Origin: Bacteroidota bacterium
GTDB taxonomy: Bacteria > Bacteroidota > Bacteroidia > Bacteroidales > ML635J-15
Direction of reading: 5' to 3'
DNA length: 51,984 bases
Assembly: GCA_034721855.1 (NCBI GenBank)
Contig: JAYENB010000007.1
Coordinates: 38,688 to 90,671 of the forward strand
Below the pieces are notes generated by a model, which was not told where the DNA came from, ran no database searches, and was given only the letters and a program-made list of their open reading frames with translations. Made by a program: the position numbers and the translations under genes. Shown one piece after another: positions 2,216-46,514 of this stretch. How positions within the stretch are numbered: the first letter of the stretch is position 1; each line of letters opens with the position of its first letter.

Positions 2216-3358
2216 TTATCGAATAATTTCGCCTGCCCATAATGTTTTCAAAAAATGCTCTACCGGCATGATTTCAATTTTCCCTGTTTTGCGATAGTAC
2301 GTTTCATTACATACTATAATTTGTCTTTTAGTATTGAATTCATCTGAAAACCTTTTTAGTCCTTTCAAATGCTTATTTTGTATGTTGTTGCCTGATTTAA
2401 CCTCAATGGCTACTTGATGATCCCCAAGGATAAAATCAACTTCAACCTGGGATGCAGTATGCCAATAGGTGATTGGATAACCCAAACCTGTATAACGGCT
2501 GTGTACGTGCAATTCATTGTAAATATAATGTTCCAGGGCTTTCCCGAATGCAGGCGTTTTTTCACTTATGTTATGATTGTTAAGTAATACATTGGTGATA
2601 CCGGTATCAAAAAAATAGAATTTGGGGCTTGAAATAATGCGTCTTTTTTGTTTTTTTTTGTATGCCGGAAGAAATCTACCCAAAAGAGTTTCTTCAAGAA
2701 TGTTAAAATATTCTTTTATTGTTACAGAGCTTACGCCGCAGTCTGATGCAATGTTCGAATAATTGACAATCTCAGCATTTGTTAAAGCTACATTTTCAAG
2801 GAAGTTTGTGAATGCCTGCACATTTCTACGTTTTGCTTCCTGGATGATTTCGTCCTGTAGGTAAGAGCCAATGTATGCACTTAACAGTTTTTGAGGATTG
2901 TTTGATAAATAATGTCTTGGTAAAGTACCAAAATTCAGGATTTTATTTAGGTCAAAATCGTTAAATTCCGGATATACCAAAGGATATAATTCATACCTAA
3001 GTGCCCGGCCACCAAGCAGGTTTACATCAGAGCGAAGAATTTTTCGCGGACTGGAGCCACTTAAAATAAATTGCGTGTCTGTGTTCGTCATGAGCCATTG
3101 TACATCATTTAATAAATGCGGAAGCCTTTGAATTTCATCAATGATGACAGGTTTTGAAGGTTTATTTGCTTTTACAATCTGCTTTAGTAAATCCTCTTGC
3201 CGGTTGAACTTTAAAAATTCAGAGTTTAACAGGAGATCAATGTAGATGGAATCAGGAAAAAGTGCTTTTAGTAAAGTTGTTTTTCCTGTTTGTCTTGCAC
3301 CCCACAAAAATGCTGATTCCTGGCCTAAATCCTCAAATGTTTGTCTTCGTTTTAGCAT
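2216..3358 (-). CDS. AAA+ ATPase, DUF4143-type (second paralog)
   Basis: 380-aa ORF with Walker A GARQTGKT and Walker B PVIIDEIQ. Confidence 0.8.
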   Translation of the reverse strand: MLKRRQTFEDLGQESAFLWGARQTGKTTLLKALFPDSIYIDLLLNSEFLKFNRQEDLLKQIVKANKPSKPVIIDEIQRLPHLLNDVQWLMTNTDTQFILSGSSPRKILRSDVNLLGGRALRYELYPLVYPEFNDFDLNKILNFGTLPRHYLSNNPQKLLSAYIGSYLQDEIIQEAKRRNVQAFTNFLENVALTNAEIVNYSNIASDCGVSSVTIKEYFNILEETLLGRFLPAYKKKQKRRIISSPKFYFFDTGITNVLLNNHNISEKTPAFGKALEHYIYNELHVHSRYTGLGYPITYWHTASQVEVDFILGDHQVAIEVKSGNNIQNKHLKGLKRFSDEFNTKRQIIVCNETYYRKTGKIEIMPVEHFLKTLWAGEIIR

Positions 3359-10120: not shown

Positions 10121-11104
10121 CTACCAAAATAGATGTTTTCCACTTCGTTTTTCATCTAAATATTTCTCATTCTTAAATCCCATACCACTGCTATATTGAC
10201 GATCAAAGATATCTCCCATACTTGGATGAGTTTTTATTACATCAGCATAATCAATCTTTTTTTGTTTCAATTTATCTTCAATAAAAGCTCCACAAATTTC
10301 TAGTTTATCAGAGCAAATTAATTTTTCATGGAGAGTTTCCCTCAATAGTAAGAAGTTTACAAAATCAATTGGTTTTTTCTTTCTTGCAATTAATGTCAAA
10401 ATAAATATCTCAAGATCATCTAATTTAACTGCCCAAGGATAAACATCATCTTCATTTTCTAATTTAATAAGGGTTGAAAGATCATTTTGAACTTGGCCAA
10501 ACGATTTTAGGTTTACAATTATTGAGAAATCTTCTTCATACTGTTCTGTATCAATATTATCGATAATATTTCCATCTTTATCAGTTATTGTTAATGGAAG
10601 ATTTTCAATAAATTTCTTTTCAATTCTGCGTATTTGAGTATAACCGTACCCTATGCAATCTTTAAAATCATCCTTAATTCTTATAAAAGCTTTATCAGGA
10701 TCACGTAATGGTTCTCTTAGTGAATAACCTTTTGCTTCGATGATAAAAGCATATTGTTTCCATAGAAATAAAATATCTTGTTCATTTCCATCTACATAAT
10801 AACTATGATAATATTTAAAGTTGGTTTTAAAGAAATTAGAAAAGAAATCAATTATTCTTTCCTCTACTAAAGCTCCTTTTTTCTTTATATATCTCGTTTC
10901 ATTTTCCTTCGTTCTAGTTATCAATTGTTCGAGAAGTAAATTTATTGAATGGATTACCTGCTTAACTTCAAAAACCTGATACATTCCTCTGCCAGTATCT
11001 ATAATTGGTTTTTCATAAAGAGGGTTTCCTGGTCTTGTTGATGTATAATACAAAAAATCGGATTTTTTTCGCTTTACAGATAATAGGTTTAAAACAATAT
11101 TCAC
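10121..11104 (-). CDS. NERD-like PD-(D/E)xK nuclease-fold protein
   Basis: 327-aa ORF with a GTG start. The segment GALVEERIIDFF...EQDILFLWKQYAFIIEAKGYSL fits the G..gE...D-x(n)-(I/V)E-x-K pattern of NERD/PD-(D/E)xK cores. The gene is AT-rich. Confidence 0.5.
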   Translation of the reverse strand: MNIVLNLLSVKRKKSDFLYYTSTRPGNPLYEKPIIDTGRGMYQVFEVKQVIHSINLLLEQLITRTKENETRYIKKKGALVEERIIDFFSNFFKTNFKYYHSYYVDGNEQDILFLWKQYAFIIEAKGYSLREPLRDPDKAFIRIKDDFKDCIGYGYTQIRRIEKKFIENLPLTITDKDGNIIDNIDTEQYEEDFSIIVNLKSFGQVQNDLSTLIKLENEDDVYPWAVKLDDLEIFILTLIARKKKPIDFVNFLLLRETLHEKLICSDKLEICGAFIEDKLKQKKIDYADVIKTHPSMGDIFDRQYSSGMGFKNEKYLDEKRSGKHLFW

Positions 11105-11239: not shown

Positions 11240-11650
11240 CTATATTTTAGAAGTATTCTTTTTTAAATCATTCCCTAAACTAGTCATATTAAGGGTAGGT
11301 AGATTTATCGGTTCAAATCCTGAAAGATTTGTTAATGTAGAAATGTAAGCTCTAATGTAAGGGAATAGCAATGCAGGAGCATTGATATAGAATAAATCAT
11401 CTAATTTTTCCAAACCTTCACTATTCTCAAACGAATAGTCTGCAACTGATTCTATTTCTATCTTAAATGATTTATTATCATCTTCAATTTTTACCCCAAG
11501 CTGTAACTGAAAGTTGCTATCTTCTTTATTTATAAAGCCTTTGGGAGCAAAACCTAAAGATATTTTTTTTGATGGAGTTTCTTCGTTTCTTTTTATTAAA
11601 GAACGAATGATTTTAAAACTCTTAAATTGAAATTTTGAATAATTTTCCAT
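11240..11650 (-). CDS. SecB-like chaperone
   Basis: 136-aa ORF. NAPALLFPYIRAYISTLTNLSGFEPINLPTLNM parallels the conserved SecB core (E. coli ...NILFPYAR...FPQLNLAPVNF). The length is SecB-like. Confidence 0.7.
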   Translation of the reverse strand: MENYSKFQFKSFKIIRSLIKRNEETPSKKISLGFAPKGFINKEDSNFQLQLGVKIEDDNKSFKIEIESVADYSFENSEGLEKLDDLFYINAPALLFPYIRAYISTLTNLSGFEPINLPTLNMTSLGNDLKKNTSKI

Positions 11651-11653
11651 AGT

Positions 11654-12031
11654 CTAAGCAGCTAAAGCATAATTGTTAGAATATTGAAAATCAACACTCT
11701 CACTAAACTCAACGACAATAAAGTCAATATTAGTTACTTCATTATGAAAAGTAATTGATTTACCTCCTAATTCAAATTCTGCACTTTTTATCTCAGACAA
11801 AGAACCTTCTGAGATGAATACTATATTTTCATTAGGAAAAAGAGATTCAAATTCTTCTTCAAGTTCAGCTTCAAGAATCAAATACCTTTCATCCTCTTTA
11901 AAAAATTCTAAAGGTGTAACCTCAATTATATGGCTATAAGTATTTGCTCTATATTCATATTGTATTTTTATATCGTTAAATTGAGCAAATAACTGTTCTA
12001 ATTTTTCTTTTATGAACTTCTTTGATTTCAT
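11654..12031 (-). CDS. small acidic protein of unknown family with an ssrA-like C-terminal tail (...SNNYALAA)
   Basis: 125-aa ORF. Its start overlaps the upstream stop (ATGA), and its stop lies 3 nt before the SecB-like ATG. The terminal codons at 11657-11680 decode as S-N-N-Y-A-L-A-A. Confidence 0.7.
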   Translation of the reverse strand: MKSKKFIKEKLEQLFAQFNDIKIQYEYRANTYSHIIEVTPLEFFKEDERYLILEAELEEEFESLFPNENIVFISEGSLSEIKSAEFELGGKSITFHNEVTNIDFIVVEFSESVDFQYSNNYALAA

Positions 12032-12435
12032 ACATTGAATTTTTTAATAATATAAGACCTTATTTCAATTGCTTTATCCATAGCATCATTTCCTTTGTCG
12101 TAATTAACCTCTACATTTTCATAGTCAGATTCAACTCGAAATTGCTTCAGATCATTAATTTTTCTTTTAAAATCTCTACTTTCAAATATATTGGATAAAG
12201 ATTTCAACTCATTTGTAATGTAATTTACAACATATTGATGAGTATTTTGTTTTGAAAAGGAAATATTTGCTGATTGAGATTCATAATCAATATTAAAAAA
12301 ATCCTTTATAGTAAATTTTAATAGTTGAAAGCAGCTATAATATGAGCAATGCACACTAGGAGCAAATAAGTTTTGTTCCAAAAGAACTTTAGCAGCATCC
12401 ATATTAAAGTCCGATTTTTGTCTTAGTTTACTCAT
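12028..12435 (-). CDS. HEPN-like helical protein (candidate toxin)
   Basis: 135-aa ORF. It has an N-terminal pattern A..LL....F..S.....YSCFQLLKF, then ...THQYV..., and a C-terminal LKQFRVESDYE, resembling the HEPN (PF05168-type) layout. This was not verified by profile search. Confidence 0.5.
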   Translation of the reverse strand: MSKLRQKSDFNMDAAKVLLEQNLFAPSVHCSYYSCFQLLKFTIKDFFNIDYESQSANISFSKQNTHQYVVNYITNELKSLSNIFESRDFKRKINDLKQFRVESDYENVEVNYDKGNDAMDKAIEIRSYIIKKFNV

Positions 12436-12445
12436 TGTTGGAACA

Positions 12446-12453
12446 CAAAAGTA
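12446..12453 (-). promoter_or_regulatory. -7 box TACTTTTG, with TTTG at 12470-12473
   Basis: Matches TAnnTTTG 10 nt upstream of the ATG at 12435. Confidence 0.4.
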
Positions 12454-12845
12454 TTATTATTTTTTTAAACAAACAATAAATATTGGTTAATTTTGATTAC
12501 TGCAACAAAGCAGCCAAATCCTCTCGTATTTTTGGCAACTCATTTATCCCCCCCCCACAAAAGTACGTTCATACATAATCGTTTGATGTATATCCACACC
12601 TCTTATGCAGGTTTATTACTCAAATATTATTTATTCAAATAATTCATAAAACAATCTGACTTGCTAAAATAGGTAAAAAGATGACAAGAAAAAATAAAGG
12701 GGATAGATATTACAACAAAAACTTAGAAATTTTTCTTAGAACAGTAACTTAGAAGCCCTTTAATGCGCGGAAGACATGTTCCAACAGAATGCAAATTGAA
12801 AAAAGTTACCATTTTAAAACCTTTGTTTTTGTGCAAATTTTGTGC

Positions 12846-12888
12846 AACTGACGAACGAAACAAGGTCAGAGGCAAAGTTGCCACCTTG
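12846..12888 (+). repeat. 43-nt fragment matching the MITE core (reverse complement of 22355-22397)
   Basis: 39/43 identity: AACTGACGAACGAAACAAGGTCAGAGGCAAAGTTGCCACCTTG versus AACTGACGAACGAAGCAAGGGCAGAGGCAAAGCTGCCACCCTG. Confidence 0.8.
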
Positions 12889-13285
12889 TGCCGCGCTGAA
12901 CATGCATATACAAACCTTTACATGTTTTCCTTATCTATCAACAAAATTTTTGTCAATGCAAGGTATTATCTCAATATTTATTACGCCAAATATACAAAAA
13001 ATTTGCCCTGCTTCATTGCTGTTTAAGTCCTTTCTACTTTCAAAAATGCACTTTTTACTGACATCTTTTGGAATGTTGTTAACAACCCCACTGTCACTGC
13101 CACTCAATACAGACAAACATTTCATTCATCTTCAATGTGTTGTATTTTTATCTGTAAATTTATGTATGTCTTCATCAAAGAAAATGTTTCCCGATAAAGG
13201 CCTCCGGCTGCAATCATGGGATTATGGTTGGAAAATAATATAAGCTTTTCTAAATTTCAGTTTACGTAACTAGTCAGGTACATTT

Positions 13286-13552
13286 AATTGTTACCGCTGA
13301 GACGCAAAGGCGCTAACCCGTCTGTCGCCGGGCAAGCTCTGCCTGCCGGCAGGCAGGGAAATGGAAAAAAAAGAATTAAATCGCTTACCATCAAATAACG
13401 AAAGCACGATGGAACGATAGCGAGAAGGCACGAAGGTGTGAGGGGACGATGTAACGTCTGCATTTAAGTATGCAATCGTGCTATCATGCAATCATGCAAT
13501 CGTGCAATCGTAACTTTGCGGTGAGGAGCTACTTTTGTTGATGCTGATTAGT
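13286..13552. repeat. expanded copy of the hairpin element at 30385-30450, carrying internal palindromes and inverted CACGA arrays
   Basis: The end arms match the compact copy at 36/40 and 17/19. Internal features are an 18-bp perfect palindrome CTGCCTGCCGGCAGGCAG (13339-13356), forward CACGA-type units (13397-13436) and reverse units (13470-13511). Confidence 0.75.
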
Positions 13553-13585
13553 TACCAGTTTACCCGTCAGATGGCAAAAAAATCC

Positions 13586-13593
13586 TATATTTG
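13586..13593 (+). promoter_or_regulatory. -7 box TATATTTG
   Basis: 25 nt upstream of the ATG at 13619. Confidence 0.45.
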
Positions 13594-13618
13594 TAATATC
13601 AAAAAATGACGGTACCCG

Positions 13619-44604: not shown

Positions 44605-45609
44605 TTATTTATCTTTATTTTTGTCGTTTTTGCCTTTTTCACGAGGTTCATCATCCGCATTTGAAATGGAATCCCTCATGCTTGTATCCGCCTGGATGTT
44701 TTTCATCTTATAGTAATCCATAATACCGAGGTTTCCGCTTCTGAATGCTTCGGCCATGGCTTTTGGCACTTGGGCTTCGGCTTCAACAACATGGGCTTTC
44801 ATTTCCTGGGTAAGTGCTTTCATTTCCTGCTCTTTGGCATAACCCATAGCACGTCGTTCTTCTGCCTTTGCCTGTGCTACTTTCAGGTCAGCTTCAGCCT
44901 GGTCAATTTGCAAGCCGGCACCAATATTTTTCCCAATATCAATATCAGCAATATCAATGGAAAGGATTTCAAAAGCAGTTCCTGCATCAAGGCCTTTTTT
45001 AAGCACCACTTTGGAAATACTGTCGGGATTTTCGAGTACGGTTTTGTGTGTGGCGGATGAGCCTATAGAAGAGACAATACCTTCGCCAACCCGTGCCAGC
45101 ACAGTTTCTTCACCTGCACCACCAACCAATTGTTTGATATTGGCGCGCACGGTCACCCTTGCTTTTGCAATGACCTGAATTCCATCCAGGGCTACTGCTG
45201 CCACAGGGGGGGTGTTGATAACCCGCGGATTTACCGACATCTGTACAGCTTCAAACACATCGCGTCCGGCCAGGTCAATAGCGGTTGCCATCTGTAAGTG
45301 CAGGCCTATATTTGCTTTGGATGCAGATACCAATGCATGCACCACTTTTTCCACATGACCGCCTGCAAGGTAGTGCGCTTCAAGGTCATTTCTTCCCAGA
45401 ACCAATCCTGCTTTTGTTCCTTCAATCATCGCCCTTACAATAATAGCCGGGGGTACTTTTCTCCACCGCATAAAAATCAATTGCAGCAGAGAAATCCTGA
45501 CCCCCGAAACCAGTGCCTGGAACCATAATCCCAGGGGGATGAAATATAAAAACAGCCATAAAAAAACAATGGCTCCGCCGATAATTAATACATAACCTAG
45601 TGTTCCCAT
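44605..45609 (-). CDS. floA: flotillin-like protein FloA (UPF0365/YqfA)
   Basis: 334 aa. Long stretches match B. subtilis FloA as I recall it ([54 protein letters not shown]). Confidence 0.93.
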
Positions 45610-45703
45610 AATGTTTATTTTTAAAGTTCTTTATTTAATAGGTGTAAAAATAATAAAATAAATGTATATTAACAAAAATAACTGCTTATTACCGCAAAAA
45701 CTA

Positions 45704-45742
45704 CACGAATGTACGATGGAACGAAAGCACGATTGCACGATT
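45704..45742 (+). repeat. short CACGA-type array in the nfeD-floA spacer
   Basis: The sequence is CACGAATGTACGATGGAACGAAAGCACGATTGCACGATTG. Confidence 0.7.
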
Positions 45743-45748
45743 GAATAG

Positions 45749-46222
45749 TTACAAGGTTCTTACAATAACTTTATTTTTTCTTACTTCAATTATTTTAAGT
45801 TTAGTTCCGGGGTCAATCAGCCCGTCCAGCGATTCGGCTTCCACAGTAATATCATTCACACGCACCGTGCCTGATGGCCCAAGCCTTGAAATAGCGGTAG
45901 CTGTATCGCCAGGTTTTATGCTGTCTTCTTTGAAATATTCTACCTTTGACTGTACCGAATCATTGAGGGAAAGTTTTTTCCATGTGTTGGATTTTAGAAA
46001 AAACACAATGGAAACAACGAGAAGGGCCAAAGCACCTCCCAATGCCCACAGTCCGGCTGCTGTGCCAACCGAATCAAAAGCAATGTAAACACCGGCACCT
46101 ACCAGCAGAATGCCGCCGATTCCCGCTATCGTGGTTCCCGGGATAACAAGCAGTTCAAGCCATATCAACACAAGGCCCAACAATATCAAAAATATAACAG
46201 CTCCAATACCCATGTTATTCAA
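45749..46222 (-). CDS. NfeD family membrane protein
   Basis: 157 aa with N-terminal TM helices and a C-terminal OB-like domain. It sits upstream of floA, as in the yqeZ-yqfA arrangement. Confidence 0.8.
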   Translation of the reverse strand: MNNMGIGAVIFLILLGLVLIWLELLVIPGTTIAGIGGILLVGAGVYIAFDSVGTAAGLWALGGALALLVVSIVFFLKSNTWKKLSLNDSVQSKVEYFKEDSIKPGDTATAISRLGPSGTVRVNDITVEAESLDGLIDPGTKLKIIEVRKNKVIVRTL

Positions 46223-46514
46223 TCATTACGTTTAACCCACGTTCAATCAAGGTATCTTTCATTGGTTTCAGCTCATCAAATTTGCCGGTTTTTACATCAC
46301 ATTTTCCCTTAAAATGCGTAATGTAGGCACATTGTTCAGCCTGTGTATGATCATGCTTACAAACCTCAACAAGGCTGTCAATGACAGAATCAAAACTGTT
46401 AACATCATCGTTGTACAAAACCATAGACTTATAATTGCCTGCCTTATGGTTTCTGTTTTTTGACGACTTAATATGTTCACGGGTCTTTTTTACCATATCA
46501 GCAAAATTAATCAA
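46215..46514 (-). CDS. clpS: ATP-dependent Clp protease adaptor ClpS
   Basis: 99 aa with a ClpS-like core: YKSMVLYNDDVNSFDSVIDSL...H..A....THFKGK. Confidence 0.85.
   Translation of the reverse strand: MINFADMVKKTREHIKSSKNRNHKAGNYKSMVLYNDDVNSFDSVIDSLVEVCKHDHTQAEQCAYITHFKGKCDVKTGKFDELKPMKDTLIERGLNVMIE

Follow-up and report, generated by a model that had tools for sequence, protein, structure and literature searches.

Why should an ordinary bacterial gene end in what looks like the peptide tag that transfer-messenger RNA (tmRNA, the product of ssrA) adds to stalled chains? The question is raised by a 51,984-nucleotide (nt) stretch of a Bacteroidota genome (contig JAYENB010000007.1 of assembly GCA_034721855.1; this whole stretch is referred to below as the window). 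Within it, a minus-strand open reading frame (ORF) of 125 amino acids (aa) at 11654..12031 ends ...DFQYSNNYALAA and then TAG; the stop codon occupies 11656..11654, and the end of the protein is read as ...VDFQYSNNYALAA. The comparisons presented here suggest that this protein is probably the antitoxin of a tripartite toxin–antitoxin–chaperone (TAC) module, and that its tail is an ssrA-type degron masked by a SecB-like chaperone.

A putative toxin–antitoxin–chaperone cassette

The 125-aa ORF is the second of three co-oriented genes, in the order HEPN toxin, antitoxin, and SecB-like chaperone (all predicted roles), which is the gene order of TAC modules. It shares 4 nt (ATGA) with the end of the upstream HEPN ORF (12028..12435), its ATG running into the TGA of that gene, and the 3-nt gap ACT (11653..11651) separates the stop of the 125-aa ORF from the ATG of the SecB-like ORF (11240..11650). 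A preliminary description of this DNA, made from the letters alone, had read the last eight codons as S-N-N-Y-A-L-A-A followed by TAG, with the SecB-like ATG 3 nt further on, and had placed the gene in the middle of an island; both the coordinates and the reading are exact, and the gene is indeed the middle member of a conserved triad whose order recurs across loci (below). The cassette lies inside a 2.5-kb stretch of low GC content, 24–32% as compared with 40–46% in the flanks. Its features, in order of transcription, are as follows.

12028..12435, minus strand: predicted HEPN toxin, 135 aa, first gene of the operon (Pfam HEPN PF05168)
11765..12031, minus strand: N-terminal folded domain of the antitoxin, residues 1–89, the presumed toxin-neutralising part; helix-strand-strand-helix-helix-strand-strand
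11675..11764, minus strand: antitoxin residues 90–119, a predicted disordered extension and candidate chaperone-addiction (ChAD) segment
11654..11680, minus strand: SNNYALAA tail of the antitoxin, S118-N-N-Y-A-L-A-A125 plus TAG; an ssrA-tag mimic and predicted ClpX-type C-terminal degron
11240..11650, minus strand: SecB-like chaperone of the CmdC / PD-T4-9_C type, 136 aa, third gene (Pfam SecB and PADLOC)

The identities of the two outer genes follow from profile matches. The first-gene protein matches Pfam HEPN PF05168 with an E value of 3.6e-6 (27.6 bits against a cutoff of 22). Across its family, residues H29, C30, Y32, Y33, Q37, K40, H66, L96, R100, D104, and Y105 are invariant and S103 is nearly so. 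The family motif R100-x-x-S-D-Y105 (R-x4-Y) is not followed by a histidine at +5 to +7, so that the canonical Rx4-6H motif is absent. Searching PDB with the single HEPN sequence returned only noise; the family profile matched entry 9xbd, described as a "HEPN domain-containing protein" (E 2.9e-6), which carries the same RxxSDY motif. At the aligned position, 9xbd and a second entry of the same description, 9xbc, read RNRSDY and RNRSDF, respectively. The third-gene protein matches Pfam SecB PF02556 (E 3.9e-11) and the PADLOC model PD-T4-9_C, that is, CmdC (E 5.4e-30), and reaches 45 bits against a cutoff of 143 with the NCBIfam SecB equivalog models. Judged by these scores, the chaperone is not a housekeeping SecB and represents the distinct SecB-fold third gene typical of TAC modules.

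The middle protein is less familiar, and no family in Pfam, NCBIfam, PADLOC, or PHROG matched it. An AlphaFold2 model built on a 59-sequence alignment folds residues 1–89 into an α/β domain (predicted local distance difference test score, pLDDT, of 63–81) and gives residues 90–119 a pLDDT below 50. Within this candidate ChAD segment, I93, F95, F104, V106, G108, and F109 form a series of semi-conserved, largely hydrophobic or aromatic positions, and residues 111–119 form a hypervariable linker. As modelled, the protein has the architecture of TAC antitoxins with a ChAD extension. Foldseek comparison of the N-terminal domain with PDB gave no significant match (best E 0.017). Jag/KhpB-like proteins and the FKBP26 insert were considered as possible folds and set aside, as their Foldseek matches were only weak; an MNT identity was rejected as well (MntA/MNT matches at probabilities of 0.47 and 0.23, E 0.17–0.29, TM-scores of 0.30–0.33). 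A 90-aa Myoviridae protein in BFVD does share the fold of the N-terminal domain (E 7e-5, target-normalised TM-score, TMt, of 0.83).

The same triad order was observed at loci L001–L008, which include unrelated neighbourhoods: transporter genes flank it in a Draconibacterium genome of 5.6 Mb (L003), a pair of DDAH-like genes does so on a contig from Flavobacteriaceae (L004), and at L006 its neighbours are an integrase and a restriction–modification (R-M) cluster. A metagenome search using the chaperone as query returned 80 loci, of which 71 included an upstream ORF and 63 a further ORF upstream of that. The ORF directly upstream of the chaperone belongs to the antitoxin family in 71 of 71 cases, and the gene preceding it belongs to the HEPN family in 63 of 63. 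Antitoxin likewise follows toxin in all TACs (Sala, 2013).

Conservation of the tail

A search over 5.8 billion proteins recovered 70 homologues of the antitoxin, 62 of them full-length, at identities down to 39%. The preliminary description had proposed looking for a YALAA-like end in homologues from other genomes, and such an end is kept throughout: YALA[A/S] closes each of the 62 full-length sequences, two of them as YALAS, such that Y121, A122, L123, and A124 are 100% conserved and A125 97%. This invariant tail directly follows positions 98–119, a hypervariable region that is the most variable stretch of the antitoxin. The 125-codon ORF itself is conserved in more than 100 homologues, with the tail as its in-frame end. 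A wider profile search of 1.84 billion cluster representatives (clustered at 50% identity) identified 1,503 related clusters at E ≤ 0.001; among the best 148 representatives, 101 end in AA, mostly as [YF]-[AS]-[LI]-A-A.

Chance does not account for this ending. The 125-aa ORF is the only one among the window's ORFs of at least 100 aa to end in AA, and a background set of 726 ORFs of at least 150 aa, drawn from the window and from 120 mainly Bacteroidota tmRNA-neighbourhood loci, contains three AA ends and no LAA end.

At the DNA level, 65 distinct tail sequences encode alanine at position −2 in every case and at −1 in 63, with synonymous variation at each tail codon (TAT/TAC; GCA/GCT/GCC/GCG; TTA/TTG/CTN) and with TAA, TAG, and TGA all in use as stops. 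Across loci, between 1 and 27 nt separate the tail from the following gene. Because the codons vary synonymously, three stops occur, and the spacing differs, selection on the tail is at the level of the peptide and not of DNA or RNA.

Match to the Bacteroidota tmRNA tag

To compare the tail with tmRNA tags, tmRNA loci were located by searching a single genome of each species for DNA that encodes NNYALAA-stop, which gave at least 120 loci. ARAGORN called a tmRNA in approximately 95 of the 120 loci listed, most of them from Bacteroidota, and the others are tmRNA frames cut by the edge of the locus. The tag encoded in Bacteroidota is GENNYALAA, which verifies the statement in the preliminary description that tags in this phylum end in NYALAA. 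The final seven residues of the window protein, NNYALAA, are identical to the last seven of this tag. The window holds no ssrA of this organism, and the match is therefore limited to the level of order or family. Within Marinilabiliales, GENNYALAA was read at L088 (Saccharicrinis), L065 (Mangrovibacterium), and L122 and L128 (both Prolixibacteraceae). The antitoxin has named carriers in this same order, namely Saccharicrinis carchari, Draconibacterium, and Marinilabiliaceae; for the Saccharicrinis and Prolixibacteraceae loci, the genus or family is also that of named carriers. In one Salinimicrobium tmRNA (L050, 3160-3557), ARAGORN reported the implausible tag GTDKVNIETAGP, probably from a mis-called resume codon; an NNYALAA-stop frame is present at 3263.

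Across the antitoxin family, the commonest residues at positions −9 to −1 read G-E-N-N-Y-A-L-A-A, and seven homologues carry the complete nine-residue tag (the antitoxins at L197–L199, L205, L215, and L217, and protein P0069). Among 102 AA-ending cluster representatives, the tag residue is found at positions −9 to −1 with frequencies of 0.17, 0.22, 0.38, 0.46, 0.68, 0.75, 0.76, 1, and 1, as compared with background frequencies of 0.03–0.10 for the same residues in the preceding 26 positions; enrichment at −9 to −5 is 2.5- to 15-fold.

The likeness to the tmRNA tag extends to all nine residues in some homologues and to seven in the window protein; the difference lies in how each is made. The antitoxin tail is written in an ordinary ORF and is carried by every molecule, whereas tmRNA adds its tag co-translationally to stalled chains. 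The tail is not a tmRNA-encoded tag added by trans-translation: ARAGORN found no tmRNA or tRNA in the window, and no Rfam family matched at the locus. As a degradation signal, the native Bacteroides tag GETNYALAA is reported in a preprint to nearly abolish the signal of green fluorescent protein to which it is fused in vivo (10.1101/2025.03.18.644028).

Homologues with other ends

Eight homologues lack the YALAA tail. One of these (P0043, at L010, 3825-4520) sits in a decayed triad consisting of a 59-aa C-terminal HEPN remnant, a 99-aa antitoxin lacking both extension and tail, and a 76-aa SecB remnant. The decayed triad adjoins a large Mrr/EVE/McrB-like gene and McrC, a defence-island context. 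Two others (P0048 and P0053) come from phage-like contigs that encode a CHAP lysin, a ClpP-like protease, and numerous small ORFs but neither SecB nor HEPN. A scan of IMG/VR identified three viral contigs that encode just residues 1–85, 1–89, or 1–103 of the antitoxin; tblastn of the antitoxin against GenBank phages gave no match, such that phage homologues were found only in IMG/VR and metagenome contigs. Standalone phage or viral copies of the N-terminal domain, 92–167 aa in length, comprise those at L012 (4001-4294), L014 (4001-4504), L136 (5001-5504), L137 (5001-5279), and L138 (4992-5288) and BFVD entry A0A8S5SJ98. These standalone copies have no ChAD extension, no YALAA tail, and no HEPN or SecB neighbour; phage and viral homologues without SecB end at about residue 90–100 or bear an unrelated C-terminus.

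Since the tail-less copies sit either in a decayed locus or apart from SecB and HEPN, the C-terminal extension and tail accompany the chaperone. The phage-borne N-terminal domains could be stable antitoxin decoys, acting as anti-TAC counter-defence.

In one sub-branch of the family, the C-terminal extension is longer and ends in SESFF[YFHL] in place of LAA, with HEPN still upstream. This sub-branch includes L222 (1291-1830) and L223 (347-919), which encode P0198 and P0184, as well as P0166, P0190, P0196, P0200, and P0205. At L223, a downstream ORF begins like a SecB-like protein (blastp against the window chaperone, E 6e-4 and 4e-3). This end may be an alternative degron or a chaperone handle.

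AA ends were also observed directly upstream of SecB-like genes in other mobile elements: ...ESLGFAA in Vibrio phage PQ189358 (L219, 1168-1431), ...NLLGDAA in Streptococcus satellite Javan245 (L220, 1124-1414), and ...GAKGAAA in Lactobacillus phage LJ (L221, 857-1273). Because three unrelated mobile elements share it, a terminal AA appears to be a general rule for SecB-linked antitoxins; by comparison of these ends, mimicry of the full tag appears special to the Bacteroidota family.

Relation to characterised systems

As far as sequence can tell, the cassette has each of the features by which a TAC module may be recognised: the gene order, a SecB-fold third gene, a predicted ChAD, and a C-terminal AA degron motif. 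Among its closest characterised counterparts is CmdTAC (PD-T4-9) of Escherichia coli (Vassallo et al., 2024, PMC11618068; Mets et al., 2024, bioRxiv 10.1101/2024.02.24.581848), with which it shares the toxin–antitoxin–chaperone order and the PADLOC chaperone family. The antitoxin CmdA is likewise small (121 aa, as compared with 125 aa) and ends in LAA, and this end is a chaperone-protected ClpXP degron. ClpP degrades CmdA when the T4 capsid protein Gp23 outcompetes it for CmdC (PMC11618068), and CmdT-CmdA expressed without the chaperone is no longer toxic once the terminal AA of CmdA is replaced by DD or once clpX or clpP is deleted (bioRxiv 10.1101/2024.02.24.581848). However, the toxin CmdT is an ADP-ribosyltransferase, whereas the toxin candidate in the window is a HEPN protein, and the window antitoxin has no detectable similarity to CmdA (no matches to PADLOC PD-T4-9_A or _B). 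The tails also differ in extent, that of the window family copying five to nine residues of the host tag as compared with two to three in CmdA, and the window family is hosted by Bacteroidota. The cassette is not a CmdTAC system because toxin and antitoxin are unrelated and only the chaperone is common to both.

A second point of comparison is HigB1-HigA1-SecB(TA) of Mycobacterium tuberculosis (Rv1955-1957; Bordes 2011/2016; Guillet 2019; Texier 2021), in which the disordered C-terminal ChAD of HigA1 is bound by a SecB-like chaperone. At its very C-terminus, still inside the ChAD, HigA1 carries a ClpX degron that the bound chaperone neutralises; degron and SecB(TA) binding site are thus both in the ChAD (PMC8165232). 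In contrast to the window protein, HigA1 ends in Val-Ala and has no copy of the tag (bioRxiv 10.1101/2024.02.24.581848). HigB is furthermore a ribosome-dependent RNase and HigA a helix-turn-helix (HTH) antitoxin, and the system has been described as stress-responsive and not as phage defence. With the HEPN-MNT (type VII) systems, the cassette shares a small HEPN protein as presumed toxin (Pfam PF05168) with a conserved tyrosine directly after an arginine-containing segment (R-x-x-S-D-Y), as in 9xbd. However, the window antitoxin matches neither NTP_transf_2 nor any other Pfam family, the window HEPN lacks Rx4-6H, and the module of the window type has the chaperone as an obligatory third gene. 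The cassette is not a HEPN-MNT system because the partner is no nucleotidyltransferase.

Published TAC antitoxins comprise the HigA, MqsA, HicB, MqsA-like, and HTH-like families (Sala, 2013), and CmdA adds a further family to this list. No description of a HEPN-type TAC, of this antitoxin family, or of NNYALAA in an antitoxin was found in the literature searched. A ClpXP degron masked by a SecB-like chaperone is already known, from CmdA and HigA1; what is new is the antitoxin family itself, its size, the completeness of its tag mimicry, and its phage-borne tail-less copies.

Proposed mechanism and alternatives

We infer from characterised relatives that the first protein is toxic and is neutralised by the second, that the tail is masked, which protease acts on it, and what sets the system off. 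Under this scheme, the N-terminal domain (residues 1–89) would neutralise the HEPN protein, and the SecB-like chaperone, bound to the disordered extension, would hide the tail and keep the antitoxin stable. Titration of the chaperone, which in CmdTAC is brought about by a phage capsid protein (PMC11618068), would expose ...NYALAA-COOH to the proteolytic system that removes proteins tagged by ssrA, most likely ClpXP. Degradation of the antitoxin would then free the HEPN toxin, with growth arrest or abortive infection as the presumed outcome. The preliminary description had already proposed a labile antitoxin with an ssrA-type tail protected by a dedicated chaperone, and the sequence-level checks that it suggested all came out in favour. 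Degron masking is well supported by the sequence evidence and is already established in the relatives.

Several points weigh against this account. The instability of the antitoxin, its dependence on ClpXP, and its masking are argued by analogy, and tail and tag were compared at the level of order, family, or genus only. In the Foldseek comparison with PDB, the antitoxin fold matches no known antitoxin. The toxic activity of the HEPN protein is not assured because the canonical Rx4-6H RNase motif is absent, and the LAA end is not obligatory for the architecture because the SESFF[YFHL] sub-branch keeps both HEPN and a SecB-like neighbour. Finally, the invariant tyrosine of the tail could equally be a chaperone contact, although the two roles are compatible.

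This last point leads to a different reading of the tail, as mainly a chaperone-recognition element of the ChAD and not a degron, its likeness to the ssrA tag being incidental or a product of a shared preference for an aromatic residue with small hydrophobic ones after it. Binding between ChAD and chaperone does require aromatic residues (Y114 in HigA1; W and F in E. coli HigA), and E. coli HigA(C) works without ClpXP (bioRxiv 10.1101/2024.02.24.581848); almost every member of the window family has Y, F, L, or W at tail position −5. However, the most invariant residues are the two terminal alanines, which are ClpX determinants and not typical features of SecB clients; the modal tail is the full nine-residue host tag, exact in several members; and unrelated SecB-linked antitoxins share only the terminal AA, as a degron would predict. 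Masking would in any case need the tail to be covered by the chaperone, such that the roles are not exclusive, and we regard recognition as the main role of the tail as unlikely. Somewhat less unlikely is that the tail is a true ssrA-type degron read in Bacteroidota not by ClpXP but by ClpAP, Lon, FtsH, or an SspB-like adaptor that would recognise G-E-N-N-Y. Proteins tagged by ssrA in E. coli are also substrates of ClpAP, Lon, and FtsH, with SspB recognising the N-terminal portion of their tag. The mimicry in the window family reaches beyond LAA, which suffices for E. coli ClpX, into the enriched positions −9 to −5, and the SecB-linked antitoxins of the Vibrio, Streptococcus, and Lactobacillus elements share AA only. 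ClpXP is nevertheless the protease in both characterised TACs, and another protease would refine the proposed degron mechanism without contradicting it.

Two further explanations depart more strongly from a masked degron. Conservation might act at the nucleotide level, with the tail codons serving as a translational-coupling or ribosome-binding signal for the SecB-like gene, forming an RNA structure, or representing a captured fragment of ssrA. The position of these codons, 1–27 nt upstream of the chaperone start codon, would suit such a role; the synonymous variation at all tail codons, the use of three stops, and the variable spacing effectively refute it. The absence of an Rfam match in the region and of a tmRNA in the window also counts against it, and we consider it extremely improbable. 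Alternatively, the cassette might not be a toxin–antitoxin system at all, the HEPN protein being inert or non-toxic and the 125-aa protein a chaperone-dependent regulator with tuned turnover. The missing Rx4-6H motif of the HEPN protein is consistent with this, as is the lack of a recognisable antitoxin fold or DNA-binding domain in the middle protein. However, the gene order, sizes, overlaps, mobility, low-GC or integrase and R-M setting, and CmdC-type chaperone all fit TAC modules; R100, S103, D104, Y105, H29, and H66 of the HEPN protein are invariant or nearly so; and phages carry standalone copies of the N-terminal domain, as expected of an anti-toxin decoy. A purely regulatory cassette therefore seems very unlikely, and a TAC module with a masked, ssrA-like degron remains the preferred explanation.

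Implications

The cassette would carry the TAC principle into Bacteroidota and add to it a (predicted) HEPN toxin and a new antitoxin fold. Because Pfam, NCBIfam, PADLOC, and PHROG contain no model of the antitoxin, the system would escape current defence-system finders. To our knowledge, both defence systems and regulated proteolysis are poorly studied in this phylum. More tentatively, and with less confidence than we place in the mechanism itself, the data may reflect a large unannotated Bacteroidota defence family (at least some 1,500 clusters at 50% identity) whose members copy the tag to graded degrees, up to completion; in which mimicry of G-E-N-N-Y points to an ssrA recognition that needs more than LAA, through an adaptor or a different protease specificity; and whose tail-less phage copies act as decoys.

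The copied tag and its natural variants (FALAA, YSLAA, YAIAA, and others) would constitute a ready set of degrons for Bacteroides synthetic biology, and these variants offer a handle on which tag residues matter in Bacteroidota. If recognition does need more than LAA, the natural tails would amount to an evolutionary mutational scan of the degron. The tail-less phage homologues point to counter-defence and, if this is correct, would represent a new anti-TAC type.

Surroundings of the cassette

No convincing direct or inverted repeats flank the low-GC island, and neither ssrA, clpX, nor clpP occurs within the window. A scan for sigma-70 promoters and terminators performed no better than on shuffled sequence. 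Upstream of the HEPN gene there is one further candidate feature, for which the evidence is weak.

12446..12453, minus strand: candidate operon promoter element TACTTTTG, 11 nt upstream of the HEPN ATG

This element fits TAnnTTTG, which we take to be the −7 consensus of the Bacteroidota primary sigma factor.

The low-GC island also holds a minus-strand ORF of 327 aa (10121-11104) immediately downstream of the triad; its match to the NERD nuclease-related domain is borderline (E 2.4e-4, 22.0 bits against a cutoff of 22.1). This gene was considered as a fourth component and rejected: its position after the triad is seen only in L001 and L002, which are near-identical contigs, and not in L003–L008, so that it falls outside the conserved module and may instead be a defence gene in its own right.

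The clpS gene that the preliminary description had placed at 46215..46514, present in the window yet unlinked to the cassette, is confirmed at those coordinates (minus strand, 99 aa, Pfam ClpS E 7.5e-15). It was rejected as a functional partner, as it lies 34 kb from the cassette, directly upstream of NfeD-like and FloA (flotillin-like) genes (44605-46514, minus strand), and has no adjacent clpA.

The approximately 1.1 kb upstream of the operon (12436-13600) contain no convincing ORF, Rfam match, or repeat. An eight-G run is present at about 12545-12552 (minus-strand reading), and GC content climbs from 33% to 42% across this interval, which may be a remnant of the insertion site of the island or a decayed gene.

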